Source of the DNA: Escherichia coli
GTDB lineage: Bacteria > Pseudomonadota > Gammaproteobacteria > Enterobacterales > Enterobacteriaceae
DNA length: 64,000 nt
NCBI RefSeq assembly: GCF_017348835.2
Contig: NZ_CP071375.1
Strand: one strand, 5' to 3'
Shown: positions 10,394 through 64,000 of the stretch, piece by piece
How positions within the stretch are numbered: the first letter of the stretch is position 1
Layout: each line of letters starts with the position of its first letter
The notes under the pieces: model-generated
What the model saw: the letters and a program-made list of their open reading frames with translations, nothing else
Databases searched by the model: none
What the model was told of the DNA's origin: nothing
Translations under genes and position numbers: made by a program

Positions 10394-12535
10394 TCAAAAT
10401 TCCATTTTCACCGTGAATTGCACTTCACGCGGATCGCCAATCTGATTCCCCAGATTATTTGTGGCGATGGAAGAGGTGTAATACGTTTTATCAAACAGGT
10501 TTTTGACGTTTAATTGCAGTGTGACCGGATACTGCAATTTCATTTTGTATGCGGCGAAGGCATCGGCAACGAAATAGCCTGGCAGATAATAGTCAGCCCC
10601 ATTGGTTGCCGAACGACGGCTTACGCCATGTCCACCACCGCCAAACGTCAGTGTGTTATTGCCTGGCATGTTATGAATGTCATAGGTCAGGAATAGCGAA
10701 CCGGTATGACGAGGAACATTCGGCAATGGTTTCCCTGCATAATCAGGATCTTCCAGAACCTTAGCATCGGTATAGCCGTAGCTGGCAATGATATTAATGT
10801 TTTCAGTTAATGCTCCCGCAAGGTCGACTTCTACCCCTCTTGAACGAACGCGGCCTGCCGTTTTGGCGATGGTTTCATCACCAATACTTTCGGTATACAA
10901 CACGTTACGTTTATGGATATCAAACAGCGCAATATCTGCGGTTATACCATCGAACAGCTCGAATTTTGCCCCGACTTCGTAAGCATTAGATGATTCCGGT
11001 GGAAGATCTCCGATGTAGCTGGCAATTGACGATTGCGGCATAAATGTTTGCGAATAATTAGCAAATAAGGATACCGATGGCGTCAGTTTGTAGACTAACC
11101 CCAGTTTGGGCGTCCATTGTTCATCGCGGCTGTCAGTATTGACATTAAAAGGACGGCCTTTACCCGCATACTGCGTGTAATACTGATAGCGGATCCCGGC
11201 GACGGCAATCCAGTTATCGGTCAGATAGAGCGCGTCCTGTGCATAAGCTGAGTAGCTCTCCTGTTTGATCGTCTGATCACTGTCCGACGCCGAAACCGTT
11301 GTGCATTTGCTGGTATTGCCATAAACGGGGTTGTAGATATTGAAATCTTTAGCGTTTTTACAGCGAATCATATCTGTGCGCAGAAGATCATAATATTCAT
11401 ATGACACCCCACCCAGAATCTCATTATAGAACCCAGCAATATCAACATTCCCTTGCAGATCCGCACGAGTAGAATGCATACGCTGGGTAGATCCCTGAGT
11501 TGCATCAACACGCCGTGTCAGCGTTCCTGTCGTTGCATCATACGCGGTAACGCGAGCCTGATTGTCGCTGTATTTATCCTGGCTGTAGCTGTAATCAAAG
11601 CGCGCTGTCCACTGGCTATTGAGATGATATTCTGCGTTGAGTTGCGCCAGATCGGACTGACCATCTGTAATATTAAACGGTTCGTCAAAACGTATTTTTC
11701 GATCAACGTTTACGGGCTGTTTCGTCGTAAGGTCGAAAATCGTTCCACGATCGAACGGAGTTTTATAGTCCCGATGGGAATAGAGCATGGTTACTGTTGC
11801 ATTATCACCAAACCAGGTGAGTGACGGGGCAATAAATGTACTGCGCTCTTTACCGAAGTTTCGCCAGTAATCTTCATCCTGCACTTCCCCCGTCAGGCGG
11901 TATGTCAGCTGAGTGCCTTCAATGGGACCTGTGATATCAAGTTGCCCAGTGCCTCCGCCAAAACTGGAGGACGTGGCTGAGACAGAACCATGGAATGTTT
12001 TTTCCGGGCGCTTGGTCACGACGTTAATCAATCCACCAGGATCGAGAATGCCATACAGCGTGGAGGCCGGACCTTTTAGCACTTCCACACGTTCTGTGGC
12101 GGCGTTGAAACTGCGAGGAAGTACAGTTCGCAGACCGTTGGTCATGATGGAGCCATCCCGGTTAGCACCAAACCCACGACGTACAAAGGCGTCCTGAGTT
12201 CCGCCTAATGTATTGGTCTGTACCACGTTACTGACGTTATAAAGCGCTTCATCCAGCGTCGTTGCATTCTGATTTTCCAGAACCTGATCGCTAACCGTAT
12301 TGACCACCTGCGGAATATCCAGCATCGGCATATCGGTTAATGTCGCCGTGGAAGTGCTCAGAGGTTGATAACCATCGGTCGCCTCAGTTGCGGTATTTGC
12401 ATCCGCTGTAACAGTGATTGTTTCGCCATCTTTGGTCGTTGCAGTGTCGGTTGCATGAATCATTGGTGCTGCAAAGAGCAGTGAAAAGAGCGCCCGACCT
12501 TTGATTCCTGAGAATGAAGGTGTGAACTTAGCCAT
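10394..12535 (-). CDS. TonB-dependent outer-membrane siderophore/iron receptor (accessory, not in K-12 at this site)
   Basis: 713 aa; signal peptide, TonB-box-like ETITVTA, plug-domain motifs, C-terminal aromatic residue (..KMEF); similarity to fitA is from memory only. Confidence 0.85.
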   Translation of the reverse strand: MAKFTPSFSGIKGRALFSLLFAAPMIHATDTATTKDGETITVTADANTATEATDGYQPLSTSTATLTDMPMLDIPQVVNTVSDQVLENQNATTLDEALYNVSNVVQTNTLGGTQDAFVRRGFGANRDGSIMTNGLRTVLPRSFNAATERVEVLKGPASTLYGILDPGGLINVVTKRPEKTFHGSVSATSSSFGGGTGQLDITGPIEGTQLTYRLTGEVQDEDYWRNFGKERSTFIAPSLTWFGDNATVTMLYSHRDYKTPFDRGTIFDLTTKQPVNVDRKIRFDEPFNITDGQSDLAQLNAEYHLNSQWTARFDYSYSQDKYSDNQARVTAYDATTGTLTRRVDATQGSTQRMHSTRADLQGNVDIAGFYNEILGGVSYEYYDLLRTDMIRCKNAKDFNIYNPVYGNTSKCTTVSASDSDQTIKQESYSAYAQDALYLTDNWIAVAGIRYQYYTQYAGKGRPFNVNTDSRDEQWTPKLGLVYKLTPSVSLFANYSQTFMPQSSIASYIGDLPPESSNAYEVGAKFELFDGITADIALFDIHKRNVLYTESIGDETIAKTAGRVRSRGVEVDLAGALTENINIIASYGYTDAKVLEDPDYAGKPLPNVPRHTGSLFLTYDIHNMPGNNTLTFGGGGHGVSRRSATNGADYYLPGYFVADAFAAYKMKLQYPVTLQLNVKNLFDKTYYTSSIATNNLGNQIGDPREVQFTVKMEF

Positions 12536-12908
12536 TTAGTCTGTTATCCCAAAAACTCACGGATTGTCGTGAGTGAAAATTGTTTCTTGTTGCTCACTAA
12601 GCACTATCCGTTTGTTATTTCACCATCGGATATGTAATTGAGAATCATTCAACCATGCGCTGATGTAGTAGTAAATGAGAAATAACAAAAAATTGCTACA
12701 TGTGTTTTTATGAGAGGTTAATGCAATTCAATTGATGGTAATTTATTAATATTTAATGGTTTTATTTTTATCTTTAAAAATATTTCACCTATTATTTACC
12801 TTGTTTTTGTATGGCTTTTAACTTCTTGACTACTACATTTTGTGGCGTCAAACTCTCAAAGGAGAATGAGTTTTATTTTTGTTTGTCTTTGATTAAGTTG
12901 GCGTACAC
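12536..12908. promoter_or_regulatory. AT-rich divergent promoter region for receptor gene and ABC operon, with Fur-box-like element near 12634-12652
   Basis: About 370 bp AT-rich intergenic between divergent starts; gagaatcattc resembles half of the Fur consensus GATAATGATAATCATTATC. Confidence 0.35.
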
Positions 12909-13718
12909 GTGGCACATAACGCAAAAGGGCAGGGGCTGATCCTCGACAATGTTTCTGCCGGGTATCACAAGAAAATCATTGTTGATGGTGTTTCTTTCTC
13001 CGTTCCCACAGAAAAAATGACCGTTCTGGTTGGGGCAAACGGCTGTGGAAAGTCGACGTTGCTCAGCACCATTGCACGTATCTTGCAACCCATGGGCGGC
13101 TCAATATTGCTGGATGGTAAAGCGATTCACGAGCAACCAACGAAAGCGTTATCCCGTAGACTTGGGATCTTGCCGCAGTCGCCATTATTGCCGGAGGGCT
13201 TAATCGTTTATGAACTGGTGTCGCGTGGGCGTTTTCCCTGGCAGAATTTCATTCGTCAATGGAGCGACGCCGACGAGCAGGCGGTAGAAGAGGCTCTGAA
13301 ATTAACCGGTACGCAGGAGTTTGCTCATTTACCTGTTGAAAAACTCTCTGGTGGGCAGCGCCAGCGTTGCTGGATTGCGATGGTGTTGGCGCAAAAGACG
13401 CCTTATATCCTACTGGATGAACCCACAACCTGGCTTGATTTACGTTATCAGGTTGAAATTCTTGAGTTATTACATGATTTAACGCGTCATCACGGGCGTA
13501 CAGTCGTCGTGGTGTTGCATGATCTGAATTTTGCCGTCAATTATGGTGATACGTTGATATTTTTACGCCAGGGGAAAGTGGTGCGTGTGTTGAATGAGGG
13601 GGAGCATTGCACGCCTGAGCTGGTAAAAGCTGTCTTTGACGTTGATGTTCACGCATCAATAAATCCTCTGTCGGGAAAGCCGTTCTTCATGCCGTTTCGT
13701 GGTGTAGAAAAAGTATGA
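12909..13718 (+). CDS. Iron-siderophore ABC transporter ATP-binding protein (FecE/FepC-like)
   Basis: Walker A GANGCGKST, signature LSGGQRQR, Walker B ILLDEPT; start codon appears to be GTG. Confidence 0.85.
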   Translation: MAHNAKGQGLILDNVSAGYHKKIIVDGVSFSVPTEKMTVLVGANGCGKSTLLSTIARILQPMGGSILLDGKAIHEQPTKALSRRLGILPQSPLLPEGLIVYELVSRGRFPWQNFIRQWSDADEQAVEEALKLTGTQEFAHLPVEKLSGGQRQRCWIAMVLAQKTPYILLDEPTTWLDLRYQVEILELLHDLTRHHGRTVVVVLHDLNFAVNYGDTLIFLRQGKVVRVLNEGEHCTPELVKAVFDVDVHASINPLSGKPFFMPFRGVEKV

Positions 13719-14698
13719 TGCGCACAGGGCTGGTTACTGTAATTTTCCTCGCCTTACTGCTGGTGGGATGCGTGGTATATCCAGGGATTGGTGCCCGATT
13801 TATTGCACCACAAACGGTGTTGCAGGCATTTCTTCATTTTGAACCGCAAAACTTCGATCACAACGTAATTGTAAGACTCCGTTTGCCGCGTTTAGCGGCA
13901 GCATTGCTTACCGGTGCTTCTCTTGGAGTTGCTGGTGCTTTGTTGCAGGCTGTCATTCGTAACCCATTGGGGGAGCCACATATTTTAGGCTTAAATGCCG
14001 GAGCCGCTCTTGCTGTCGTTGCTGCCAGTGCGCTTGGGCTGGCCTTTCCGGTTGGACGCCCACTGCTGGCATCTACGGGCGGCGCGTTATTGTTCCTGTT
14101 GATATTGCTGCTTTCCTCCGCAGGGCGTTCAGGGTTAACGCCAATGAAAGTTACTTTATGCGGCGTGGCGCTATCGGCGTTCGTGTCCTCAATAACGGCT
14201 GCAATCCTGATTCTTGACGAACAAACACTGCTGGCGATGCGGACATGGCTAGCAGGTGATTTAGCGGGGCAGGATTGGGTGACGCTGGGTACGTCCGCCT
14301 GGTTTTCTCTGGGGGGATTTGTGTTAGCCATTTACCTTGCGCCCTCTCTTAACATGTTGGCACTGGGTGATCGCATGGCGCAGGGGCTGGGCGTCTCGGT
14401 ACTCCGCACGCGAACATTCACCCTGCTTGCGATCGCGTTGCTCTGTGGCGCAGCCGTATCGATTGCTGGCCCCATTGGTTTTGTCGGTCTGCTAGTACCG
14501 CAGATTGTCAGGCGTCTGGTATCAGCGGATCTGCGCGTTCTGCTCCCTCTTTCAGCTTGTGTCGGCGCGCTTTTGTTATTACTGGCAGATATTATTGCTC
14601 GGACGCTCTTCACGCCCCATGAGTTAGCGACCGGTGTCATGACGGCGTTAGTTGGTGCGCCTGTTTTTGTCATTATGGCGACGAGGATGTTCAAATGA
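13715..14698 (+). CDS. Iron-siderophore ABC transporter permease (FecCD family)
   Basis: 327 aa polytopic membrane protein; start overlaps ATPase stop. Confidence 0.8.
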   Translation: MMRTGLVTVIFLALLLVGCVVYPGIGARFIAPQTVLQAFLHFEPQNFDHNVIVRLRLPRLAAALLTGASLGVAGALLQAVIRNPLGEPHILGLNAGAALAVVAASALGLAFPVGRPLLASTGGALLFLLILLLSSAGRSGLTPMKVTLCGVALSAFVSSITAAILILDEQTLLAMRTWLAGDLAGQDWVTLGTSAWFSLGGFVLAIYLAPSLNMLALGDRMAQGLGVSVLRTRTFTLLAIALLCGAAVSIAGPIGFVGLLVPQIVRRLVSADLRVLLPLSACVGALLLLLADIIARTLFTPHELATGVMTALVGAPVFVIMATRMFK

Positions 14699-15744
14699 GT
14701 CGGATAATGAACGTCGGGCTACGCCCACTACGTGTTGGTAAGTTTTCGACACTGGTACGCCCTAAAAATCTGGTGTTGCTTGGTGGGCTGTTTCTGTTTG
14801 CGGTTGGAATACTGATATTCGGTCTGATGCATGGTTCTTTTTCTGTCCCGGCATCGGAAGTAGGACGAGCGTTGTTTGCTCCAGAAAACGTAAGCACAGA
14901 CGCACGTTATATTGTGCAGGATATTCGCTTGCCGAGAGTCATCATGGCATTGCTATGCGGAGCCATGTTAGGTATGGCGGGGGCCGCGATGCAATCCATT
15001 GCGCGTAACGGCCTTGCCGATCCTGGTTTAATCGGCGTCAAAGAAGGATGTAGCGTGGCGGTGCTGTGGCTGATTATCCAGTTTCCAATGCTGGGAATGT
15101 TCTGGCGTCCAGTGGCTGGTCTTGCTGGTGGCTTGTTGGTGGCTTTAATCGTGATTTTTTGTGCACGCGATATTTCCCGCCCGCGATTTGTTCTGATTGG
15201 TATTGGTGTTTCCTGGTTTTTCGCCGCCGGTATCGGTGTATTTATGACCACTGCAGATGTTCGAGATGTACAAACTGCATTGATGTGGTTATCGGGAAGC
15301 CTGCATGCAGCAAACTGGATGTTAGTCGGTATTTCAGCCTGTTGGATGTTGCCAGCCGCTCTTTTATTGCTGTTCACCGCCAGGACGGCGGATATCGCTC
15401 TGCTTGGTCATCAGGTTGCAACCGGGTTAGGGGTGAATAGTTCTCGTCTGGCGTTGTTACGTGTCGCCGCACCAATAATCCTGACAGCCGTCTGCGTTTC
15501 GTGTGTTGGTAACATCGGTTTTGTCGGATTGATAGCACCCCATATATCACGTTTTATTCTACGTGGCGGGCAGACGACATTACTGCTGGGGAGCGCGGTA
15601 TCGGGGGCGTTGTTAGTTATTCTGGCGGATAGCATTGGTCGTTTGGCTTTTTTGCCTTTGCAACTGCCTGCAGGAATCATTATCTCACTGATTGGTGGGC
15701 CATTTTTTTTGCTACTGCTCTGGCAGCGCAGGAACAGTTTTTAA
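14695..15744 (+). CDS. Iron-siderophore ABC transporter permease (FecCD family), second copy
   Basis: 349 aa polytopic membrane protein; start overlaps preceding stop. Confidence 0.8.
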   Translation: MSRIMNVGLRPLRVGKFSTLVRPKNLVLLGGLFLFAVGILIFGLMHGSFSVPASEVGRALFAPENVSTDARYIVQDIRLPRVIMALLCGAMLGMAGAAMQSIARNGLADPGLIGVKEGCSVAVLWLIIQFPMLGMFWRPVAGLAGGLLVALIVIFCARDISRPRFVLIGIGVSWFFAAGIGVFMTTADVRDVQTALMWLSGSLHAANWMLVGISACWMLPAALLLLFTARTADIALLGHQVATGLGVNSSRLALLRVAAPIILTAVCVSCVGNIGFVGLIAPHISRFILRGGQTTLLLGSAVSGALLVILADSIGRLAFLPLQLPAGIIISLIGGPFFLLLLWQRRNSF

Positions 15745-15754
15745 TGGGAGTTAT

Positions 15755-16702
15755 ATGCGTTTATTTTTTTCTCTGCTGATACTGTTGTCATTCTTTGCCC
15801 GCGCGACAGAACCTGTTCAGGTCTTTACTGATGATTTAGGGCGCAAAGTCACTGTTCCTGCTCATCCAAAGAGAATTGTCTCTTTACACGATCTTGATAT
15901 CACTATTCCTCTGATTGAGCTCGGTGTACCTCCTGTCGCCAGCCACGGGCGAACCCGGCCTGACGGTAGCCATTTCATTCGATCAGGCGCGTTATTGACA
16001 GGTGTCGACTTTGATAATTCATCGATCGCTTTTATTGGCACCGCTGATATTGATATTGAAGCGATTGTGGCGGCAAAGCCTGATCTGATTATCACAGAAC
16101 CGACCCGTAATACGCCCATTGAACAACTGGAAAAAATTGCGCCCACGGTGAGCATTGATCATCTCAAAGGAGGCGCGCCAGAAATCTACCGCAAGCTGGC
16201 AGAACTGACAGGAACGCAGTCGCAGCTGGCGATACTTGAACGCCGCTATCAGGCACAAATCAATGCGCTGAAGGCGACGCTGGACAGCCAAAAAATAACG
16301 GTATCGGTGATTCAGGCAAATCAGGGAAAAATTAATGTGATGCATAGCTATCATTCGCTGGGGCGGGTATTACGCGATGCTGGTTTTCGCTTTCCGCCGC
16401 TGATTGAGAGCATTCCTGAAGGTGGGCGAATGGATGTGAGCGCGGAGCGTTTACCTGAACTGGATGCCGATTTTGTTTTTGCAACCTGGCGCGGTGACAC
16501 CGGTGGTAAACCTCAGGATGAGCTGGCAGCAATGGAAAAAGTCATGCCGGGATGGTGTCAGTTTCTGACTGCCTGTCGTTCCGGGCGTTATGTGCTGATT
16601 TCTCGTGAAGAGGCAATTTCTAACTCCTTTGCATCTCTGGGGCTGATGGCTGCGCAGATACAATCACAAATTGCGGGACGACCTCTACCGGAGGCTAAAT
16701 GA
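15755..16702 (+). CDS. Periplasmic iron-siderophore binding protein (cluster A substrate-binding protein)
   Basis: 315 aa from MRLFFSLLILLSFFARA (signal peptide), GGAG-like RBS upstream; ORF-track start is an upstream extension. Confidence 0.75.
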   Translation: MRLFFSLLILLSFFARATEPVQVFTDDLGRKVTVPAHPKRIVSLHDLDITIPLIELGVPPVASHGRTRPDGSHFIRSGALLTGVDFDNSSIAFIGTADIDIEAIVAAKPDLIITEPTRNTPIEQLEKIAPTVSIDHLKGGAPEIYRKLAELTGTQSQLAILERRYQAQINALKATLDSQKITVSVIQANQGKINVMHSYHSLGRVLRDAGFRFPPLIESIPEGGRMDVSAERLPELDADFVFATWRGDTGGKPQDELAAMEKVMPGWCQFLTACRSGRYVLISREEAISNSFASLGLMAAQIQSQIAGRPLPEAK

Positions 16703-17586
16703 TCCAGAAAGACAAAACGCGGGTTGATATTTATGGTGAGCGTTTTCGCACTCGCGCGAGTCAGTTAACGCCTGGGTTAAGAGCTGTCGCAAGCTACATT
16801 AATGAGCATCGTGAAGTGGTACTCGAGCAAACGGCGATGGAAATTGCGGCCACGTTGAACACTTCCGATGCCACAGTTATCAGGGCTATACAGGCCCTGG
16901 GGTTTGCCGGGCTGCGTGATCTGAAACGCACTCTGGAACAGTGGCTTGGTCCAGCCCTTAGTTCCAGCGAAAAGATGTCTACGACGGTGAGTAACTTGAC
17001 GAGCGATGTTAACACCGCAATCGACTTTGTTCTTGAAGGGCATTTGTATACCTGTAATGTCCTGTCAGAGCCTGAAAACCGCCACGCGCTTGCGCAAGCT
17101 GTAGCGTTGTTGGTACAGGCACGGCAAGTCGCAATTTTTGGCATTGGCGCTTCGGGTATTCTGGCGGACTATACCGCACGACTATTCAACCGCATAGGTT
17201 TGCCTGCCACGGCACTAAACCGTACGGGTATTGGCCTTGCCGAGCAACTGATCGCGCTTCAACGTGGCGATGTTCTGATCATGATGGCGCAAAAATCTGC
17301 GCACCGGGAAGGACTGACAACGCTGCGTGAAGCGAGACGGCTGGGGATCCCTGTTATTTTGCTGACAAACGCGCTGGATTCACGTTTTAGCAAAGACGCC
17401 AGTATCGTGATTCATGTTCCGCGCGGGGATGAAAAGGGGAAAACGCCACTACATGGTACGGTATTGTTGTGCCTGGAAATGATTGTTTGGTCGGTGGCTT
17501 CCGCGATGCCGCAGCGTGCGGTTAAAACCATTAAGCGAATTAACGATTTCCATCGGGGTTTGAAAACAGGAAGAAAGAATGGCTAA
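16699..17586 (+). CDS. RpiR/MurR-family transcriptional regulator (HTH_6 + SIS domain)
   Basis: 295 aa; N-terminal HTH, central SIS-type fold (VAIFGIGASG); start overlaps stop of binding-protein gene. Confidence 0.75.
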   Translation: MIQKDKTRVDIYGERFRTRASQLTPGLRAVASYINEHREVVLEQTAMEIAATLNTSDATVIRAIQALGFAGLRDLKRTLEQWLGPALSSSEKMSTTVSNLTSDVNTAIDFVLEGHLYTCNVLSEPENRHALAQAVALLVQARQVAIFGIGASGILADYTARLFNRIGLPATALNRTGIGLAEQLIALQRGDVLIMMAQKSAHREGLTTLREARRLGIPVILLTNALDSRFSKDASIVIHVPRGDEKGKTPLHGTVLLCLEMIVWSVASAMPQRAVKTIKRINDFHRGLKTGRKNG

Positions 17587-17629: not shown

Positions 17630-17944
17630 TTAAATCCCCGGTTGCAGAATACGGATATTCATCTCCAGCACGTCGCCTTTTACGGCTTCGCTGTACGCCT
17701 TCATGTGCGGGGTTTGCAGATGCGCTTCAAGGTGCGCGATGCTTTCCCACTGCTCAATCATCACGATAGAATCCGGTGCCATAGACTGGAAACTCACGCC
17801 AGCAGCGCAATCCACCATTGGCGCATAGCCGTGGCAACCTTCTTCTTTCAGTACGGTTGGAACGATTTTAGCAAACTGATCCAATACCGCCTGACGGTGA
17901 TGTTGACCAGGACGAGTACGGATTTCTGCGATTACGGTAAGCAT
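17630..17944 (-). CDS. ygiN: Quinol monooxygenase YgiN
   Basis: 104 aa, ABM-domain; follows mdaB as in K-12. Confidence 0.9.
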   Translation of the reverse strand: MLTVIAEIRTRPGQHHRQAVLDQFAKIVPTVLKEEGCHGYAPMVDCAAGVSFQSMAPDSIVMIEQWESIAHLEAHLQTPHMKAYSEAVKGDVLEMNIRILQPGI

Positions 17945-17974
17945 GGTTAACTCCTTCTAAAGCCTGAGCTCTAG

Positions 17975-18556
17975 TTAACCAAAAATTTCCACAAGATGCT
18001 TGCGATATTCTTCAGTATAGCGGGGAACATCAGGCATTTTTATCACGTCATTAGCGATAAATGTCGGCAGCGGTTCCATACCGAGGAATTGGTTTGCTTT
18101 ATGGAACGACAGATACACACCGTCAACGCCAACGCCGTGGAAGAACTGATCTTTTTCGGTGAAGGCTTCCATTGGTGCGTTCCAGGTTAGAGAAAGCATA
18201 TATTTTTTGCCCTGTACCAGGCCGCCGGAACCGTATTTTTTCGACGGATCTTTGCGGGTACGACCATCGCTGGCATACAGAGTCCCGTGACCTTCGGTGA
18301 ATACATCATCAATGTATTTTTTCACTGTCCACGGCGCGCCCATCCACCAGCCTGGCATCTGCCAGATCACCACATCAGCCCAGAGAAAGTTTTGTACTTC
18401 CGCTTTGACATCGTAGTCGCTGTCGGCGCGAACGATGCGAACATCATGCCCGAGGTCGCGCAGTGTGCCATCCGCGACTTCGGTCAGGGTGTCGTTCAGT
18501 TGACCATTGGAGTGGGCGAATTTTTTCACGCCGTTGATAATCAGGATGTTGCTCAT
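17975..18556 (-). CDS. mdaB: NADPH:quinone oxidoreductase MdaB
   Basis: 193 aa flavodoxin-like fold protein (MSNILIINGVKKFAHSNGQLN...). Confidence 0.9.
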   Translation of the reverse strand: MSNILIINGVKKFAHSNGQLNDTLTEVADGTLRDLGHDVRIVRADSDYDVKAEVQNFLWADVVIWQMPGWWMGAPWTVKKYIDDVFTEGHGTLYASDGRTRKDPSKKYGSGGLVQGKKYMLSLTWNAPMEAFTEKDQFFHGVGVDGVYLSFHKANQFLGMEPLPTFIANDVIKMPDVPRYTEEYRKHLVEIFG

Positions 18557-18665
18557 TTTTTAACCTCAAGGTGAGACGTTTGCCAACTATAGTACGTCAC
18601 AGAGCGGTACGGTGAAATTAGCAAAATGTGCAAAGTCTTTTGCGAATTTAGCAAAAGTCTTACCC

Positions 18666-20015
18666 TTACCAGCTTACTTTCGCCTCAAATCCACCTTGTT
18701 CCGCATTCCCAAATTCAACATTCATGCCATGCAGCTTGGCGATTCGCTGGACAATCGATAGCCCAAGTCCACTGCCGGTAGCGGTTTGTCCGGGTGGGCG
18801 ATAGAAGCGTTCGCCAATTCGCGCCAGTGCCTCTGGTGTCACACCGGGGCCGTTATCCCTCACGATGAAATTATCGGCATTCAGCGTGACGTCCACCACG
18901 CTGCCCTGTGGACTGTAACGCACGGCGTTATCCAGCAAATTTCGCACCAACAAACTTAGCAATAGCGGTTGTCCGGTGCGTTTGATGCCCTGGACATTGA
19001 GTGTCAGTCGCACGTCAATTTTCGCCTGCTGCGCCGTGTGGTAAATATCCATCACCGACGATTGCAGGAGATCTTCAAGCGGGATCTCCGCGACGTCCTG
19101 AAGGTTATCCAGTGAGTCCAGCCGCGATAGCGTGAGCAGTTGATCAACCAGACGAGTAGCGCGATCGATCCCGTAATGTAATTGAAGCAGTGCTTTTTTC
19201 CGCGCCTGCGGATCATCGTCAGAGAGCTGCGCAACTTCGGTTTGCACTTTCAGCGCTGTTAACGGGCTACGTAGTTCGTGAGCTGCATCGGAGGTAAAGC
19301 GTCGTTCTCGAACCATCATCGCATGTGTGCGGGCGAACAGTTGATTTAGCGACTCAACCAGTGGTCGTACTTCGCTGGGTACGCCAGTCGCGTTTAGTGG
19401 TTTTTCCGAGTCAGGGTCACGCATACGTAGCGCCAGCGCCAGCTTGTTCAGCGGCGCGAGTTCACGACCCAGTAGTACCATCATGATGATTAACATAATC
19501 GGCAGTGCAACCAGCCACGGGATCAATTGCCCGGCAACAATCGCCAGCGCCATGTCTTCACGGTATTCCCATTCCTGACCAACAACGATGCGATATTTGC
19601 CATCAGGTGAGGTCATCCAGACAAAACGCCAGGGATCGTCTTCACCGACCAGTTGCCCGTCAGCAAAACCTTCCCGTTGATAGCTATAGGGAATATCTTC
19701 TCCGTTATCGCCATCATTAAGGACCATTCTGCCGTCGTGGGTAAAGATGGCAAAGGTCAACGCATCGTCATCAACATGACCGTGTTTTAATTTATTCGGC
19801 GTCTGTGCCATGCGATCCGCCGCGTTGATTTCGTTGAGATCGAGCGTACTTAACCGCTTGGCAAACAGCATCAGTTGGGTGTCGAACAACTCATCGACGT
19901 TATCCGTTGTTTGTTTCCAGGCGACAAAGCTGGAAAGCAGCCAGGTCACCGAGGCCAGAATTAAAAAGATTAGCGTCAGCCTGACTCGCAGACTAAGACG
20001 TTGGGTAAATTTCAT
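18666..20015 (-). CDS. qseC: Sensor histidine kinase QseC
   Basis: 449 aa, two TM segments, HAMP, H-box (AAHELRSPL), HATPase_c. Confidence 0.92.
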
Positions 20016-38765: not shown

Positions 38766-38980
38766 TTGCCTGATGCGCTACGCTCATCAAGCCTACAAAA
38801 TCTATTGCAACATGTTGAATCTTCGTGCGTTTGTAGGCCGGATAAGGCGTTCACGCCGCATCCGGCATTAGGTGCTCAATGCCTGATGCGCTACGCTTAT
38901 CAGGCCTACAAAATCTATTGCAACATGTTGAATCTTCATGCGTTTGTAGGCGGATAAGGCGTTTTCGCCACATCAGGTAA
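38766..38980. repeat. Tandem pair of REP/BIME-type extragenic palindromic units (two ~110-bp near-identical copies)
   Basis: gcctgatgcgctacgct[c/t]atca[a/g]gcctacaaaatctattgcaacatgttgaatcttc... occurs twice in tandem with few substitutions. Confidence 0.8.
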
Positions 38981-56445: not shown

Positions 56446-58050
56446 ATGGTAACTAAAAAGGTAAAAACAAACCACCCGTACTATCGTGTTTTATCTGGCA
56501 CCTCCATGCCGTTTCCCCACATACATGAAGCTGTTTCCGAACAGTTGCTTCTACTCATTTTCAAAGCACGCAGATTGTATCTGGATCCAGAATATCGTCC
56601 CTGGTTTGATGAACAACATCGGATTCTCTCGGCATTACGCGCTAACACAAAACTACAAAATATTTTAGAGCAAAATAGAGAGGACTACTCCATAGGTGAG
56701 ACCGATAATCCACTATCTAAAGAGCTGTATGCTGCTTTTCAGGTTATGTGCCATTTATACAATGGTTTTGATAACAGACTCGTCAGCCTGAAAACCTGGG
56801 GAGATATGAACAGGGAACCAACAGCAAAATTTGTCGGCCAAAATAGTGGTGGCTGGAAAACACCTGAGATGGAAGAATTCGTCAGAAACGATTTGTTCAA
56901 TATTCTGACAGATTGCAAAGCTCATTGCTCACCACTTCCCGCTCTGGTTCGACAAGGATATTGCCATCAGGATCTTTCTGTTGCGCACTCATGTACTAAA
57001 GAATTACTGGAACAACTGAACCGATACCATCAAATTGATGAATCAGCGATACTTGCCAGAACCCTTGGTTTGGCTATTAACAACTGCTATCACTCAAAAA
57101 CAGAGATTCCTGAATGGCTTTCTCCTTTTGAAAATGAATACAAAAGTCCCTGGAATTGTGAGAAACCAGATACTAACGATGTGAGTAAACTTAGAAAACA
57201 ATTGCTAACAATCGGGCGTACAGAATTCGTGGACAAAATGTTTTCGCTAGCCAACAAAAATGCAACAAAGATAATATATGATGGATACGTTAAACTTTAT
57301 GCTCTGGAAATATATGAATGGTTAAATAAATTAGTGCAATATTTTAAAGGAAATGATTTTATTCGTTACACCTGGAAATTCACAACAATTATTTCCGATG
57401 AAAGTGACACGATTGAAAACACCACCGCATGGGAAAAAGACTATTGTCAAATCACTATACAGCGCGATGAACTTCTGAAACTGATTTATACCAATACCCT
57501 GCAGGATGCAGCAATGAATCTTGCTGGTTGCCTGCAACAGGCATACATAGAACCGTTAAAAAGGGAAATAAATTATCCAGGAATAAACATTGATGCAAAA
57601 GAGCGTGAAATTAGAAAATCTATTGAATTCAGGAGCGAACTGAATAACTTCACAAACATCATGAAACAACTGGAAACATTTGAAAAATGGTATAATGCCA
57701 ATAAAATTCTGTTGGTAAGTAACAAAAAGAAACGTACAGAAAAGATTGACGTGAATATTCGTCTTGCAGGACTGAAAGGCTATGATCTGAATGAAGGTAT
57801 ACCTGATGGTCAGGGACGCAAAATTAAAGATGGTGTGAATGAACTCGTCAAGGCAGATGGCAGTCTACAACTTCCACAAGATATCAGTGACACTTCGCTT
57901 AACCGTTACCGTCAAGCAGTTCAACACATTATTAAGGATGAGATCGACACGTTGCTGATAGCACAGAGGGAAAAAAATAAAATAAATCCATATAGCGAAG
58001 ATAGATACTCTATACGACCTTTATGGGGAAAATGTCTGGTCGAACAGTAA
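56446..58050 (+). CDS. Hypothetical protein, 534 aa, no recognisable domain (islet cargo)
   Basis: Long uninterrupted ORF with RBS-like GGAAG upstream of ATG; AT-rich, Lys/Glu/Asn-rich, predicted helical; no Walker, nuclease, TIR or other motif found by eye. Confidence 0.6.
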   Translation: MVTKKVKTNHPYYRVLSGTSMPFPHIHEAVSEQLLLLIFKARRLYLDPEYRPWFDEQHRILSALRANTKLQNILEQNREDYSIGETDNPLSKELYAAFQVMCHLYNGFDNRLVSLKTWGDMNREPTAKFVGQNSGGWKTPEMEEFVRNDLFNILTDCKAHCSPLPALVRQGYCHQDLSVAHSCTKELLEQLNRYHQIDESAILARTLGLAINNCYHSKTEIPEWLSPFENEYKSPWNCEKPDTNDVSKLRKQLLTIGRTEFVDKMFSLANKNATKIIYDGYVKLYALEIYEWLNKLVQYFKGNDFIRYTWKFTTIISDESDTIENTTAWEKDYCQITIQRDELLKLIYTNTLQDAAMNLAGCLQQAYIEPLKREINYPGINIDAKEREIRKSIEFRSELNNFTNIMKQLETFEKWYNANKILLVSNKKKRTEKIDVNIRLAGLKGYDLNEGIPDGQGRKIKDGVNELVKADGSLQLPQDISDTSLNRYRQAVQHIIKDEIDTLLIAQREKNKINPYSEDRYSIRPLWGKCLVEQ

Positions 58051-58132
58051 CTCACTGAGAAAGGGGATAGCAGTTCGCTATCCCCAAGGGAGACTTTCCA
58101 GCAAGATCTCAAAAAACGAGACACTCGGCAAA

Positions 58133-58729
58133 TTATGCGGCTTTACCATTAACAGATTCAGCCACAAGAACGACAGCGTGTCTGTTTCGCTCAGGATGTT
58201 CACTCCAGATTTCTGATTCCGGGATGCTTTTCCCGTCATAACTGATCCGTTCGCCATCAAACGGGTAATACCGTGCGGAATCAGTATCTAAAATAAACAC
58301 CTTCAGATTCGTTGAACGACGCGCAATATGCTGCCAGAGAGCTTTACCTCCTTCATATTGCTCGTTATCACTTAATAGTACAACGCCCGCTTTTGTGACT
58401 ATCGTTTCATAAACAAACGTTGCAAGACCAACATCACGTACAGCGCCATCGACAACAATCCCTTCAATCTGAGCAACATCCTGTTCTTCCCAGAATTTCT
58501 GGACAAACACGCCTTCAAGCCGGGGACGACGCTGAAGCTCCAGAGTGGCAACAACCTTATGGCGAACATCACCATCAATAACAGAAGGTGCAGCTTCGAT
58601 TACCGCAGCAAACGGAGTCTTTGGATCCCAGATGATCTGGTAAAGCACGCCCTGAATAGTTACTCCATCCAGTATCGAAAAACGACGAGCTACAGTAGCA
58701 GGGGAGTAAGACATTGGAATTACAGCCAT
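58133..58729 (-). CDS. Hypothetical protein, ~198 aa (islet cargo; convergent with the 534-aa gene, same strand as integrase)
   Basis: ORF with GAGGGG RBS 9 nt upstream of ATG (MAVIPMSYSP...); ORF-track version starts at an upstream GTG (58759); no domain recognised. Confidence 0.55.
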   Translation of the reverse strand: MAVIPMSYSPATVARRFSILDGVTIQGVLYQIIWDPKTPFAAVIEAAPSVIDGDVRHKVVATLELQRRPRLEGVFVQKFWEEQDVAQIEGIVVDGAVRDVGLATFVYETIVTKAGVVLLSDNEQYEGGKALWQHIARRSTNLKVFILDTDSARYYPFDGERISYDGKSIPESEIWSEHPERNRHAVVLVAESVNGKAA

Positions 58730-58858
58730 TTTTGAATCCCCTCTGAGTAATACCGGCACGAAAATTTACCTCAATAATTATAGTAAACAATACAAGAACC
58801 AAGTGCATCAACAATACCCATCAATTGTACACAATTCGTACAGCGACCAGGAACTCCC

Positions 58859-60175
58859 TCACCTTCTGCCAAACAGATTGACAACATTATTGCCTGTTTG
58901 CTGTTGATAGTTATTAACCCGGTCCTCCCAGATCTCAAGTGCTCTGCGTTTTTCTGGCAAATAATCGTATCGATCATAATGTTTTGAACTGACATCGTTC
59001 AACGCATGATTTTGAATACGATCGCGGATTTCCTTACTGATCCCAGCTTCTCCCATTAACGTTTTACAGGTCCGACGTAAGTCACGTGCTGTAAAAATTT
59101 TAAAGTCAGGATTAAAAGCCCGGAAATACATGATAGCGCGAGCCAGACTGTCCGTACGAACCGGACGCTTACCATTAGTCGAAAGTGGAAAAATGTAAGG
59201 GCTGGATTTTTCTTTTGTTAACTCCTGCACACAGGATAATTCCTGTAATGCTGATTCAGTCAACGGTATCAAATGCTCTCGTTTATTTTTAGAGACATCA
59301 GCAGTCACCAGCAGCGTTTTTTGTTGAAAATCAACATCACACCACTGACTGGCGATCATTTCGAAGGGACGTTGCCCTCCGGTATAGATACAGAATCGGA
59401 TCAAATGTTGCATCAATAATCCAACGTTGGTTGCTTCAGCAAAATGTTCCATTAGAAAACGCAACTCTTCAAGTGTCAGCCAGGTATCACCGACTTTTTC
59501 AGCAGATGACTGTTTCGGTATCACTGACACCGGATTTGCCTCCAGCCCAAAAGTAATCCCTGCACTTGTGTTCATCGGATCGTTATCTGCTTTCAGTCCA
59601 TAGTTAAATGCAGCCATCAGGTAAGAACGGATCCGGTTAGAGTGAACCACAGCACCACGCTGAATGATCCCGGCCAGGATATGTTTAATCTGTCCGGAAG
59701 TCACATCTTTAGCTTTAGTTTCACGGGGGATCACTGTATAGCATTCATTTTCAAGGCGTTTCAGAACATCCTGCCATGTCCTCTTATTATCAATTTTCAT
59801 TTTGTTAACATAACCATGAATCAATGCTTCAAATGAGCCCTGTGATTGATGGAGTTGTATCCGCTGCTGTTCTGCAAACTGTTGTCGTTCCAGTTCTGCC
59901 TGGGGATCCTTTCCTTCAATGAGCCAGGCACCATACTTTTTTGCCAGTTCATTCGCTGTGGCCAGTTTCATCTCAGGCCATATACCCAATTGAATGAATC
60001 TTTCTTTTTTCCCTTTTTCCACGTAATAGCGGAAATAGAAAATCTTGCTGCCAGAAGACTGAACTTTGACACCAAGTCGTCCAGTGCCACGTTGAGAGCT
60101 GTTGCTCCAGACATAGAACGATGTCTTTTTTGCTTTCAATGCTCGGATGGCTGTTTCAGTAAGATTGACGGCCAT
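58859..60175 (-). CDS. Tyrosine site-specific integrase (P4-like, N-terminal DUF4102-type arm-binding domain)
   Basis: 438 aa; C-terminal catalytic region with R...HxLR...Y pattern (..LRRTCKTL.., ..HYDRYDY..); adjacent to tRNA-derived att repeat. Confidence 0.85.
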   Translation of the reverse strand: MAVNLTETAIRALKAKKTSFYVWSNSSQRGTGRLGVKVQSSGSKIFYFRYYVEKGKKERFIQLGIWPEMKLATANELAKKYGAWLIEGKDPQAELERQQFAEQQRIQLHQSQGSFEALIHGYVNKMKIDNKRTWQDVLKRLENECYTVIPRETKAKDVTSGQIKHILAGIIQRGAVVHSNRIRSYLMAAFNYGLKADNDPMNTSAGITFGLEANPVSVIPKQSSAEKVGDTWLTLEELRFLMEHFAEATNVGLLMQHLIRFCIYTGGQRPFEMIASQWCDVDFQQKTLLVTADVSKNKREHLIPLTESALQELSCVQELTKEKSSPYIFPLSTNGKRPVRTDSLARAIMYFRAFNPDFKIFTARDLRRTCKTLMGEAGISKEIRDRIQNHALNDVSSKHYDRYDYLPEKRRALEIWEDRVNNYQQQTGNNVVNLFGRR

Positions 60176-60371
60176 AGAACCTCTTTTCTAAACCAGTAAC
60201 AATCAGAATAACTCGTGATTTTGGGTCAGGTAATGGGTCAGGTAACGATCGTACAATGAAGAAAAAACGGAACCAAGCGGAGACAGAGAAAATTACATAA
60301 TTCATTGATTATAAACAACTAATAAAGCAATCGCGAACAAACAAAAACAATATAGAACGAACTTGCCTCAT

Positions 60372-60418
60372 GACTCATAATCGCTTGGTCGCTGGTTCAA
60401 GTCCAGCAGGGGCCACCA
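60372..60418 (+). repeat. Partial tRNA-Ile(CAU) (ileX-type) 3' end: 47-nt att direct repeat, not a functional tRNA gene
   Basis: GACTCATAATCGCTTGGTCGCTGGTTCAAGTCCAGCAGGGGCCACCA matches anticodon stem-loop (CAU) through CCA of ileX as remembered; the 5' half of the tRNA (GGCCCCTTAGCTCAG...) is absent and replaced by island sequence. Confidence 0.75.
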
Positions 60419-60426
60419 GATACAGT

Positions 60427-60460
60427 AAAGGCTGACGAGAAATCGTCAGCCTTTTTCTTT
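60427..60460 (+). terminator. Native ileX terminator
   Basis: Hairpin ggctgacga...tcgtcagcc followed by TTTTTC. Confidence 0.6.
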
Positions 60461-60471
60461 TCATATATCAG

Positions 60472-61236
60472 TTACTTCGCGTGCCAGTAAGCCGCTGCAC
60501 GTACCTGTTGAGGGTCATACTGTTCCGCTTCAAAGCGACGGCTTAAATTCTTCACCACCTTCCCTTCGCCGGTTATCCAGATGAAGTAATCATCGGCAGG
60601 GATTTGCATCTGCGCCAGACGCGCATCTACCGCCTGCTCATCATGTGCCAGCCATTCGATATTAAAACCATCAAGGTGCGCGAGATAATCCTGACAGGCG
60701 TTATCCCGCACGCTAACCAGCGCGCTAACTTGCGGTTTAACGGCAAGTTTGCTCAACGTTTCCAGGCGGCGGCGCAGTGCGGGCATTCCGGATTCATCGC
60801 AGACATACAGCTGATACGCGTAATCTTCCGGCACCACCAGCGAACCGCGCGGACCTGCCACCGTGAGTTTATCGCCCGGTTGGGCCTGCATTGCCCAGCT
60901 ACTGGCGACGCCGTCTTCGTGAATAAAGAAATCAATCGCCAGTTCATGGCGTAGTTCGTCATACAACGGCGTATAGTCACGCGACGGTGGGCGTGGTCCT
61001 TCCGGCCAGACGATGCCCTCTTCCGTTACCGTTGGCGGCACAAAGTGAGCGTCAGGTTGAGGAAAGAAGAGTTTGCTGTGATCGTCAAAGCCGCGCGATG
61101 TAAAACCGTCCAGCGCCTCGCCGCCAAGGACAATGCGCTGAAAACCGGCGCTGATACGCTCAACGCGTAGCACAGTCAGTTCACGGAACCGCAGATCATT
61201 GCGAACGCGCTGCGGGTAGCGGGGGGTGTTATTCAT
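60472..61236 (-). CDS. yqjH: NADPH-dependent ferric-siderophore reductase (siderophore-interacting protein, FAD-binding)
   Basis: 254 aa, MNNTPRYPQRVRNDLRFRELTVLRVERIS..., ViuB-like. Confidence 0.9.
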   Translation of the reverse strand: MNNTPRYPQRVRNDLRFRELTVLRVERISAGFQRIVLGGEALDGFTSRGFDDHSKLFFPQPDAHFVPPTVTEEGIVWPEGPRPPSRDYTPLYDELRHELAIDFFIHEDGVASSWAMQAQPGDKLTVAGPRGSLVVPEDYAYQLYVCDESGMPALRRRLETLSKLAVKPQVSALVSVRDNACQDYLAHLDGFNIEWLAHDEQAVDARLAQMQIPADDYFIWITGEGKVVKNLSRRFEAEQYDPQQVRAAAYWHAK

Positions 61237-61257
61237 TGTTATCGCCTTCGTGATGGT

Positions 61258-61314
61258 AATCAGATATATCTAAATAAAACTCGCAAATGATAATGATTGT
61301 TAATCATGATAAAT
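61258..61314. promoter_or_regulatory. yqjH promoter region: palindrome ATCAGATATATCTAAAT plus Fur-box-like AAATGATAATGATTGTTAATCATGATAAAT
   Basis: Near-perfect dyad symmetry seen directly; matches Fur consensus GATAATGATAATCATTATC; yqjH is a known Fur- and YqjI-regulated gene. Confidence 0.55.
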
Positions 61315-61389
61315 GCAAGCGATTTGTAGAACTGATATGTCTATAGTCTGATAAGACGAACCGCCTCTTCTCAGGCATCATTACTCAAC

Positions 61390-61424
61390 GCCGGATGCGG
61401 CGTGAACGCCTTATCCGGCCTACG
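61390..61424. repeat. REP element in yqjH-yqjI intergenic region
   Basis: gccggatgcggcgtgaacgccttatccggcctac. Confidence 0.7.
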
Positions 61425-61477
61425 TGTGAGATGAGTCCACGTTTAAAAATCATTTTTACACTTGCAAGAGCTCTCAT

Positions 61478-61505
61478 ATCAGATATAAATTAGATATATC
61501 TAATT
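61478..61505. promoter_or_regulatory. Second palindromic operator-like site (ATCAGATATAaattAGATATATCTAAT) immediately upstream of yqjI
   Basis: Shares the AGATATATCT core with the site at 61258-61275; sits 20 bp upstream of the yqjI start, consistent with autoregulation. Confidence 0.45.
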
Positions 61506-61523
61506 AAGCAAAAGGAGGCTGAT

Positions 61524-62147
61524 ATGAGCCATCATCACGAAGGGTGTTGTAAACATGAAGGCCAGCCACGCCATGAGGGCTGCTGCAAAGGTGAGAAGTC
61601 AGAACACGAGCACTGCGGACACGGTCACCAGCATGAACACGGTCAATGCTGCGGTGGTCGCCACGGTCGCGGCGGCGGTCGTCGACAACGTTTCTTTGGT
61701 CACGGTGAATTGCGTCTGGTGATTCTGGATATTCTCTCGCGCGATGACAGCCACGGTTACGAATTGATTAAAGCGATTGAGAATCTAACCCAAGGGAATT
61801 ACACCCCAAGCCCGGGCGTCATCTACCCGACGCTGGATTTTCTGCAGGAGCAGTCGCTGATTACCATCCGCGAAGAGGAAGGTGGTAAGAAGCAGATTGC
61901 GCTGACCGAACAAGGCGCGCAGTGGCTGGAAGAAAACCGCGAACAGGTGGAGATGATTGAAGAACGCATCAAAGCGCGTTGCGTTGGCGCTGCGCTGCGC
62001 CAGAACCCGCAAATGAAGCGGGCGCTGGATAATTTTAAAGCGGTGCTGGATTTACGCGTCAACCAGAGTGATATCACTGATGCACAAATAAAAAAGATCA
62101 TTGCGGTGATCGACCGCGCCGCTTTTGATATTACGCAACTGGATTAA
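61524..62147 (+). CDS. yqjI: PadR-family Ni/Fe-responsive repressor YqjI (NfeR) with His/Cys-rich N-terminal tail
   Basis: 207 aa; N-terminus MSHHHEGCCKHEGQPRHEGCCKGEKSEHEHCGHGHQHEHGQCCGG followed by PadR winged helix. Confidence 0.9.
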   Translation: MSHHHEGCCKHEGQPRHEGCCKGEKSEHEHCGHGHQHEHGQCCGGRHGRGGGRRQRFFGHGELRLVILDILSRDDSHGYELIKAIENLTQGNYTPSPGVIYPTLDFLQEQSLITIREEEGGKKQIALTEQGAQWLEENREQVEMIEERIKARCVGAALRQNPQMKRALDNFKAVLDLRVNQSDITDAQIKKIIAVIDRAAFDITQLD

Positions 62148-62152
62148 TCACC

Positions 62153-62250
62153 GATTGCCGGATGCGGCGTACCCTACACACCCCGTAGGCCTGATAAGAT
62201 GCGCCAGCATCGCATCAGGCATTGTGCTCCAACCGCCGGATCCGGCATAC
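62153..62250. repeat. REP cluster between yqjI and aer
   Basis: gccggatgcggcgtaccc...taggcctgataagatgcgccagcatcgcatcaggc...ccgccggatccggcat. Confidence 0.75.
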
Positions 62251-62253
62251 CGA

Positions 62254-63774
62254 TTAATGCAGCACCGTCACCGCGTCTTCCAGTCGGCTGGCGCGGTGTT
62301 TCACCATCGCCGACACCTGCGCACTCTCTTCCACCAGCTCAGCATTTTTCTGGGTGATGAGGTTAAGCTCATCCACTGCACGGGTCAGGCTGGAAAGACC
62401 ATCGGCCTGTTCCAGCGTTGAATGGCTAATCTGGGCAATCAACTGGGTGACGTTTTTCACCTGTGCCACAATATCTTCCATCGTACGTCCGGCGGCGTGT
62501 ACCTGCTGCGAACCGGATTGCACCTTATCAGCACTGGCATCAATCAGCTTGCGAATATCGTTGGCAGCATTGGCGCTGCGGCTGGCTAAATGACGCACTT
62601 CCCCCGCCACCACTGCAAAACCTTTGCCCTGTTCGCCGGCTCGCGCCGCTTCCACCGCCGCATTCAGGGCCAGAATATTGGTCTGAAACGCAATATCGTT
62701 AATCAGCGAAGTAATGGTGCCAATGCGCTGGGTACTGTCGGCGATATCGTCCATAGTCTTGATCACCGTGGTCATCGCCTCCCCGCCCTGCACTGCCGCA
62801 TTACTGGCAGTGATTGACAGTTTATCGGCAGCCGACGCCGTGGCAGAGTTCTGTTTCACCGACGCCGCCATTTGGTTCATGGTCGCCACCGTTTGCTGAA
62901 CGTTATCAACTGTCTGCTGGGTATGTTCGTTCAGTTCATCGGTGCCTTTCGCTAGCGTCTCACTGCCATTTCTGACACTGGACACCTGGCTTGAGACATC
63001 GTTAATTAGCCAACGGCACATCAGGCCAAGCTGCCCTACCGCGCGTAATGTCAGCCCCAGCTCATCGCTGCGATTCAGATGCTCAACACTATTACGCTCT
63101 CCGGTCGCCACCTTCAGCGCCTGACGGGCGACATTTTCTATCGGGCGGACAATCTGCCATTCAAAACAGGCGCTTGCCAACAATACCACTAACGCACAGA
63201 GGATATACGTCACCACCGGGGCAGCAACAAACCAAAGCATGGCCGCCAGCAAGATAAACATCAGGGTCATCACTCCACGCGCCCGCCAGCGAAGCGGTAA
63301 TGAAGGCAGTTTACCCAGCCAGCCTTTACGCACCACCAGGCCTTTATGAATACGCTTACCGGTACGTCCGGCGTTCAGCGCTTTGTACAGCGGCTCCACC
63401 GCCGCGATCTCTTCATCCGTCGCCCGGGTACGAATCGACATATAACCACTGATTTTTCCCTCGCGCACCATCGGTACCGCATTGGCCCGCCCCCAATAAT
63501 GGTCACCATTTTTGCGGCGATTTTTCACGATGCCGCTCCAGGGCTCCCCTTTTTTCAGGGTGAACCACATATCCGCAAACGCCGCTTTTGGCATATCCGG
63601 GTGACGCACCATATTGTGCGGCTGCCCCTGTAACTCTTGCAAGGTATAGCCGCTCACCTGCACAAAAGTGTCATTAGCATGAGTGATATAGCTTTGCAGA
63701 TCGGTAGTGGACATCAGAGTGGTATCGTCCGCCAGCGGGGTATTTTGCTGGGTGACATACGGATGAGAAGACAT
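62254..63774 (-). CDS. aer: Aerotaxis receptor Aer (PAS-FAD + HAMP + methyl-accepting signalling domain)
   Basis: 506 aa; N-terminal PAS (..[39 protein letters not shown]..), C-terminal MCP signalling domain. Confidence 0.93.
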
Positions 63775-63821
63775 GTTCGCGTCCTGTGCAGGTTATATGG
63801 TTGTTAACTTCTTGTCAGAGT

Positions 63822-63850
63822 TTATGTCGGCCCCGCTGCGGTTATCTTTA
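63822..63850 (-). promoter_or_regulatory. Candidate sigma-28 (FliA) promoter for aer
   Basis: Minus strand reads TAAAGATA-N11-GCCGACATAA versus consensus TAAAGTTT-N11-GCCGATAA, about 50-75 bp upstream of the aer start. Confidence 0.4.
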
Positions 63851-64000
63851 ACCGATTAATTTGATTTAGATCGCAATTTGCGATTAAAGCACAAATCTAA
63901 TTCGTTGATTTAAAATACTTTCACTCTGTTACTATACGAAAACGTTAATTATCTTGCCCAAAAATCAGGCAATTATTGCCCTGAAAACGTGCATTTGCGC

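Follow-up and report, generated by a model that had tools for sequence, protein, structure and literature searches.

The window analyzed in this study, a contiguous stretch of 64,000 nt, carries at positions 60372-60418 (plus strand) the sequence GACTCATAATCGCTTGGTCGCTGGTTCAAGTCCAGCAGGGGCCACCA, which is identical at 47 of 47 positions to nucleotides 30-76 of K-12 MG1655 ileX, the gene of tRNA-Ile2 with the anticodon CAU. The matching part begins two bases before the anticodon loop, within the 5' strand of the anticodon stem, and covers the loop and everything 3' of it up to the CCA end. The three bases immediately before it are CAT in the window versus GGC in K-12 ileX, and the match is therefore exactly 47 nt long. 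Apart from a single mismatch, the 64-kb window follows the chromosome of E. coli PE164 collinearly (NZ_CP114128.1, descending from record position 726521 to 662522), and the fragment falls at record 666104-666150. As the ileY gene of PE164 (record 1120137-1120212) differs from ileX at three positions, two of which lie inside the 47-nt region, the fragment can be assigned to ileX and not to ileY.

An earlier note on this DNA had stated that only the 3' 47 nt of tRNA-Ile(CAU) are present here, which the full identity and the CAT/GGC boundary confirm. ARAGORN called no tRNA in the whole 64-kb window, and hence no complete tRNA at the fragment, and an Rfam scan of positions 58000-64000 (E<=10) gave neither a tRNA nor a truncated-tRNA match. 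No promoter-like site was found upstream of the fragment, which is non-functional and unable to fold into a tRNA. Judged by the alignment, chance cannot explain an exact match of 47 nt together with a collinear native flank.

This flank lies to the right, where the K-12 order is retained with few SNPs. The intrinsic terminator of native ileX was identified by a terminator scan at 60427-60464 (plus strand), with a 12-bp stem-loop at 60427-60454 followed by a T tract, and it is collinear with K-12. It is followed by nfeF (yqjH; 60472-61236, minus strand), the native right-hand chromosomal flank according to annotation and K-12 comparison, and then by nfeR and aer. The earlier description of a sequence running from the anticodon stem-loop through CCA into the native terminator and yqjH is thus correct. 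A permissive Rfam scan of 58000-64000 returned, besides noise, REP-like naRNA4 matches at 61345-61420 and 62188-62247 (REP/BIME-like, about 46.5 bits and hence below the gathering score of 59.5), which occupy the nfeF-nfeR and nfeR-aer intergenic regions.

On the left, the sequence next to the fragment has no homology to the mug-ileX region of K-12, in agreement with the view that the D-arm and the 5' acceptor half have been replaced by islet DNA. An AT-rich spacer of 196 nt (60176-60371, plus strand) separates the fragment from the start codon of an integrase gene and constitutes the P arm of the attachment site; it is conserved in the E. coli genomes C7 and F2_81. A motif search detected two tandem copies of GGGTCAGGTAA within this arm (60223-60245, plus strand). 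They are the only exact copies in the window, in which 0.68 chance matches would be expected at up to one mismatch. The same doublet is found 58 nt downstream of the regenerated ileX described below, in the same orientation relative to ileX, and loci of Kluyvera, Enterobacter, and Escherichia sp. have it at unchanged offsets. We infer from this arrangement that the repeats are candidate arm-type binding sites of the integrase, and their presence at both junctions would fit a single ancestral attP.

The integrase gene (58859-60175, minus strand) is intact and encodes a tyrosine integrase of 438 aa that is transcribed away from the fragment, antiparallel to it. Pfam searches detected Arm-DNA-bind_3 (56 bits) and Phage_integrase (41.3 bits), both over their cut-offs, and Phage_int_M at 23.8 bits, slightly below the cut-off of 27 bits. 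The resulting layout of an N-terminal arm-binding, a central, and a C-terminal catalytic domain is the P4/CP4-type architecture. The curated NCBIfam integrase model PRK09692 was not reached (77.9 bits versus a cut-off of 434), and the identity to K-12 IntA is 24% over the full length, which together mark the protein as a distant relative, and not a member, of the family covered by this model. Of the catalytic residues R...HxxR...H...Y, the first Arg, the LR of the HxxR motif, the later His, and the Tyr have counterparts when the protein is aligned pairwise with IntA, whereas the first His of HxxR is an Arg in our integrase (RDLR versus HGLR). The best match to a phage integrase was found with Providencia phage PSTCR3 (38%). 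PE164, C7, and F2_81 have the same integrase accession, WP_000290292.1.

Directly beside the integrase gene, there are two genes for hypothetical proteins of 198 aa (58133-58729, minus strand) and 534 aa (56446-58050, plus strand). Both island genes are annotated in PE164, C7, F2_81, and Salmonella, and searches of Pfam, NCBIfam, and PADLOC gave no family match for either protein. No other cargo was kept in what is a surviving 4.06-kb remnant (56317-60371) of an ileX island of about 32 kb that is complete in F2_81. The left edge of the remnant lies 129 bp past the end of the 534-aa gene and corresponds to position 10256 of the F2_81 island locus (L007). The CP4-type cargo set from the GTPase gene to DUF4942, which is present in the intact islands of F2_81 and C7, is absent from the remnant in the window.

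The remnant is bordered on the left by an IS3-family element of 1,310 bp (55007-56316, plus strand) with the terminal repeats TGAACCGCCCCGG, no target-site duplication, and an annotated programmed frameshift. By its length (about 1,310 bp) and its ends, we take it to be IS629-like. PE164 has about 30 copies of the element and F2_81 about 25. Two of the PE164 copies were inspected, the one in the window and another at 17657-18966 of the PE164 locus L003, and as both lack target-site duplications, each sits at a rearrangement joint. In the window, the element is fused to a truncated yghT (54756-55006, minus strand; annotated as "thymidylate kinase") whose N-terminus is missing.

Everything further to the left (1-54755) is core chromosome, with zupT, tolC, parE/parC, hyb, and pitB in this order, pitB being followed leftwards by 53 kb of core genes, and comparison of the PE164 annotation with K-12 shows that this block is inverted relative to the nfeF side. 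The GC skew is positive from 1 to 57 kb of the window and negative beyond, which agrees weakly with an inverted block, as the un-inverted sample comprises a few kb and includes island DNA. Two side aspects of this block may be mentioned. The ygiN-parE interval contains, at about 10394-17586 (PE164 record 708936-716128), genes for a MurR/RpiR regulator, an iron-siderophore ABC transporter (binding protein, two FecCD permeases, and ATPase), and a TonB-dependent receptor; the AT skew is unusually negative at this cluster, which is presumably absent from K-12. In the yghA-exbD intergenic region, off-diagonal BLAST matches revealed two adjacent copies of about 99 nt (38767-38865 and 38880-38977) that are about 92% alike.

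PE164 does possess a full-length ileX. It lies beside mug (record 751715-751790), separated from the fragment by 85.6 kb and situated about 25 kb past the left end of the window, and together with the ileY copy it bears out the expectation that functional tRNA must be encoded elsewhere. The upstream region and the 5' half of this gene are identical to K-12, but from the T-stem on it reads GTTGGTTCAAACCCAAC instead of the native GCTGGTTCAAGTCCAGC. The differences comprise a C-to-T and a G-to-A exchange across one T-stem pair, which compensate each other, and two changes in the loop. On its 3' side, there follow a terminator that is not that of K-12 and then DUF4942, DUF957, and a truncated DUF5983, so that the intact ileX is indeed flanked by the complementary part of the islet, as had been proposed. 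The T-arm of the fragment, in contrast, is of the native E. coli type. Because the full-length gene combines a K-12-type 5' half with a foreign T-arm, a foreign terminator, and subsequent island genes, it is, on this sequence evidence, an island-regenerated hybrid, and the fragment in the window, ileX', is the displaced native 3' part that forms the core of attR. AUA decoding in PE164 rests on the hybrid ileX and ileY. Hybrid genes with the foreign T-arm and terminator were also found beside mug in F2_81 and C7.

The origin of the foreign half can be narrowed down. In other Enterobacterales genera, the island-type 47 nt are part of an ordinary full-length tRNA-Ile2 gene at 54 of 62 loci, including those of Kluyvera, Kosakonia, Edwardsiella, Dickeya, Lonsdalea, Serratia, Atlantibacter, and Citrobacter. 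This makes the island-type 3' half foreign to E. coli, and the tRNA half carried by the island reflects a non-E. coli host. The hybrid ileX and the fragment have exactly 20 nt in common, GACTCATAATCGCTTGGTCG (60372-60391, plus strand), with the first difference at the T-stem. This block around the anticodon loop would bracket the strand exchange, with a repeat that begins in the anticodon stem. The earlier note had described the fragment as an attR-type scar of integration at the 3' end of the tRNA gene. The attR part stands, with a P4-type integrase gene 196 nt upstream, a native T-arm in the fragment, and a foreign T-arm and terminator at the other island end, whereas the integration at the tRNA 3' end is to be refined to a probably anticodon-centered site, in view of the crossover bracketed to 20 nt around the anticodon loop.

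The arrangement is widespread. Among 5,426 complete E. coli genomes, the attR junction (int-fragment-nfeF) was found in 359 and the attL junction (mug-ileX-DUF4942) in 347, and K-12 exemplifies the empty ileX site. In all 359 genomes, as well as in loci of Kluyvera, Enterobacter, and Escherichia sp., the fragment breaks at the identical base and is accompanied by the integrase gene and the arm motif. An identical fragment of 47 nt, next to integrases that are 85-86% identical, is found in Kluyvera ascorbata, Enterobacter sp. Bisph1, and Escherichia sp. ESNIH1, and a Salmonella record shows the same layout of nfeF, int, two hypothetical genes, and AlpA.

An undisturbed CP4-type island of 32 kb is present in F2_81. 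Starting from the ileX side, the order is mug, hybrid ileX, DUF4942, DUF957, DUF5983, CbtA, CbeA, YeeT, YeeS, an antirestriction protein, DUF932, Cah, and the GTPase, followed by IS copies, type I restriction-modification, Gp2/YfjJ-like genes, an AlpA-family regulator, the 534-aa and 198-aa genes, int, ileX', and nfeF. The earlier assumption that the islet once extended leftwards to an intact ileX is supported by this island, which runs 32 kb leftwards to ileX, but the copy found there is the regenerated hybrid and not an untouched original. For 13 genomes, the positions of both junctions were visible, and in this sample attL and attR were on one strand and 31-71 kb apart in nine, and on opposite strands and 85-142 kb apart in four (PE164, FORC 064, CD45, and C7). 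We also considered the possibility that the position of the integrase gene beside the fragment is a product of rearrangement, and rejected it, as this layout is normal in F2_81 and the eight other one-strand genomes and in the Kluyvera and Enterobacter loci.

A reconstructed attP, composed of P arm, island core, and P' arm, had no contiguous match in E. coli genomes or plasmids. The record CP101363.1, labeled as the Salmonella enterica plasmid pIndS102_4, was considered as an excised circle and rejected, because it appears to be a linear piece of Salmonella chromosome with the same attR junction. This 11.7-kb linear record carries chromosomal genes for an MCP, a PadR regulator, and a siderophore-interacting protein, followed by the integrase, the two uncharacterised genes, and AlpA.

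In PE164, the two ends of the island are thus on opposite strands, 85.6 kb apart, and have core genes between them, whereas in F2_81 the gene and its fragment have the same orientation and are separated by the island alone (32 kb). As the same-orientation arrangement is lost here and yet present in relatives such as F2_81, a PE164-type genome holds a disrupted former member of the tRNA-gene-integrated islands. The order in K-12 is pheV, yghT, pitB, rpoD, mug, ileX, and nfeF, with further genes between pheV and yghT and between pitB and rpoD. Relative to both nfeF and pheV, the block from the truncated yghT to ileX is inverted in PE164. The convergent ileX and pheV genes are separated by 21 kb in PE164 and by 12 kb in C7.

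C7 has both reciprocal products of an inversion in which the ileX island and a similar one at pheV took part. One runs from ileX' and int to the DUF5983-DUF957-DUF4942 module and ends in a 3' remnant of pheV next to yghD; the other has the order mug, ileX, DUF4942, DUF957, truncated DUF5983, IS1, toxin gene, and pheV. PE164 has the second product in the same form, while the first is cut down and joined via the IS element to the truncated yghT. The distance between attL and attR is accordingly about 142 kb in C7 and 85.6 kb in PE164, which is about 57 kb shorter. The joint between islet and IS is found in PE164 only (1 of 5,426 genomes), and the joint between the truncated yghT and the IS is shared by PE164 only with the un-inverted F2_81. 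The pheV 3' remnant of C7 (about 2750-2775 of locus L006, at the joint of DUF4942 and yghD) has a one-base deletion in a G run a few bases ahead of the discriminator, GTCCGGCACCA versus GTCCGGGCACCA, and small deletions of the same kind in displaced fragments are mentioned in the Islander paper (PMC4383910).

The regions adjoining pheV offer further side aspects. In PE164, a gene for a protein of 2,979 aa with a TcdA/TcdB glycosyltransferase domain lies outside the window between the ileX-side island end and pheV (record 754554-763490; L003 4554-13490). We take this protein to be Efa1/LifA-like. C7 carries the gene for the 2,979-aa protein directly beside pheV, and PE164 has an additional conjugative-type remnant between this gene and pheV (truncated TraG, TraI, and a 320-aa integrase). 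The pheV island of F2_81 (L010 31109-35812) is wholly unlike that of PE164 and contains a Qat anti-phage system, a KAP NTPase, and a two-partner-secretion hemagglutinin. PE164 and F2_81 nevertheless have ileX junctions that are 100% identical and the yghT'-IS joint in common, despite their unlike pheV islands, which points to a rapid turnover of pheV islands within one lineage.

Taken together, it is very probable that the 47 nt are the native 3' part of ileX, displaced by the integration of a CP4-type island, and that a later inversion and an IS-associated deletion split this island. The attachment site of the island would have brought its own tRNA copy from the anticodon stem to CCA, and the integrase would have exchanged strands within the 20-nt block centered on the anticodon loop. 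At attL, the native promoter and 5' half would thereby have been joined to the 3' half and terminator of the island, yielding the hybrid ileX, and at attR, the displaced native 3' fragment would have remained before its own terminator and nfeF. The islands at ileX and pheV, oppositely oriented and with similar end modules, could then have served as recombination substrates, so that the block between them was inverted, most likely by homologous recombination of the DUF5983-DUF957-DUF4942 end modules. An IS-associated deletion of about 57 kb may subsequently have removed most of the island, leaving the 4-kb remnant with the integrase gene and two uncharacterised genes fused via the IS3-family element to the truncated yghT. 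We favor an inversion through the island end modules followed by an IS-associated deletion because attL and attR are about 57 kb closer together in PE164 than in C7. No other order of events is as economical, although it speaks against it that the pheV island of F2_81, to which PE164 is most closely related at both junctions, is of quite another kind.

The inversion could also have arisen directly between two inverted IS copies, one in yghT and one after the 534-aa gene, with the DUF4942 modules uninvolved. Over its first 140 nt and the yghT' flank, the IS at the joint matches the yghT copy of F2_81 without a difference, then deviates from it at 14 sites, and it is 100% identical to the island-borne copy of C7, as would be expected of a recombinant. 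Moreover, the joint between yghT' and IS is older than the rearrangement. However, the rearranged region of PE164 is flanked by two IS copies in direct orientation, and a reciprocal product connecting island interior, IS, and pheV-side flank was not found in the regions examined. As the region after ileX is structurally identical to the DUF4942-module product of C7, and as additional deletions would be needed, we regard a direct IS-by-IS inversion as a weaker and rather unlikely alternative to the route through the island modules. A simple inversion between the two flanking IS copies as the sole mechanism was rejected, as these copies are in direct orientation, lack target-site duplications, and have flanks that do not pair up.

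It was in principle also possible that the separation of fragment and ileX is an assembly artefact, with an IS-bounded block mis-joined or flipped in a genome that in reality resembles F2_81. The islet-IS-yghT' joint occurs in a single assembly, this 1.3-kb repeat is present about 30 times in the strain, and GC skew is blind to the difference between a real inversion and an assembly flip. However, a flip between flanking IS copies in direct orientation would not be consistent with reads, and opposite strands for attL and attR are likewise seen in FORC 064 and CD45. Misassembly is unlikely, and in our estimation very much so, because the pheV-side evidence, with ileX, DUF4942, DUF957, truncated DUF5983, IS1, toxin gene, and pheV in convergent arrangement, does not involve this IS and is reproduced in the independent assembly of C7.

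The remnant can presumably no longer excise, as attL and attR now face each other in inverted orientation and the gene of the AlpA family has been lost. We give very little credence to the idea that the intact integrase could flip the 85.6-kb block between the inverted attL and attR, which would make it a site-specifically invertible segment and not a dead scar; if this were true, the invertible block would include rpoD, dnaG, parC, parE, and tolC.

Two simpler origins of the fragment can be set aside with near certainty. A decayed pseudogene, in which an IS insertion or a random deletion destroyed the 5' half of ileX without any island integration, might be suggested by the nearby IS3-family element and its roughly 30 copies in the strain, but the element is 4 kb away from the fragment and not at the break, the break recurs at one base in the genomes and genera listed above, always with integrase and motif, and a regenerated ileX with a foreign 3' half is present at the other island end. 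Equally improbable, the fragment could be the island's own tRNA 3' half, which islands do carry in their attachment sites, with the full-length gene beside mug as the untouched original; however, the fragment, its terminator, and the nfeF flank are K-12 sequence, while the full-length gene has a non-E. coli T-arm and a non-K-12 downstream region.

The knowledge of tRNA-targeted integration is unchanged by this scar. It provides a worked example of how a T-arm difference tags the native versus the island-supplied half of a tRNA gene, and of how two islands of similar make-up, one at ileX and one at pheV, can bring about the inversion of some 100 kb of core chromosome and leave the scar of an attachment site at a great distance from its counterpart. 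The T-arm polymorphism as a tag, the geometry with the integrase gene beside the fragment, and the strain-specific splitting of the island are modest points.

Reiter in 1989 and Williams in 2002 are said to have described islands in tRNA and tmRNA genes that leave a regenerated gene and a displaced 3' fragment. In tRNA-targeted islands, the regenerated tDNA and the displaced fragment mark the ends, and anticodon-centered sites account for about half of the mapped islands (PMC4383910). Our locus resembles this anticodon-centered 'A' class in its tyrosine integrase, the island-supplied 3' part of the tRNA, and the repeat from the anticodon stem to CCA, and the island family also shares the full-length gene at one end and the same-sense 3' fragment at the other. 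Unlike in that class, gene and fragment are here oppositely oriented and 85.6 kb apart, with 4 kb of island beside the fragment. The orientation filter of Islander would reject such an opposite-orientation pair, and island finders that demand tRNA gene and fragment in the same orientation would miss the PE164 arrangement (PMC4383910).

The CP4-type elements of K-12 (CP4-57 at ssrA with IntA, CP4-44, and CP4-6) have the same integrase domain architecture, and the likeness extends, in the relatives of our island, to the GTPase, Ag43/Cah, DUF932, antirestriction protein, YeeS/RadC, YeeT, CbeA/CbtA, DUF5983, DUF957, and DUF4942. The integrase is, however, only 24% identical to IntA, and its gene is the neighbor of the displaced fragment and runs antiparallel to the tRNA, whereas intA is the neighbor of the intact ssrA gene and runs parallel to it.

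In Shiga-toxin-producing E. coli, ileX has been reported to harbor integrative elements as well as LAA modules (PMC7067040, PMC5539235, PMC7545054), and an inversion between integrative elements at two tRNA loci has been reported as well (PMC7067040). The likeness of our island to these elements is one of the chromosomal target gene. The attB of coliphage 186 is listed as ileY/ileX (table in PMC3448106), and the island thus has the same tRNA-Ile2 target genes as this P2-like phage, in contrast to which nothing phage-like is found at the island in the window. Set beside these systems, the tRNA-fragment scar is real, ordinary, and already known in kind.
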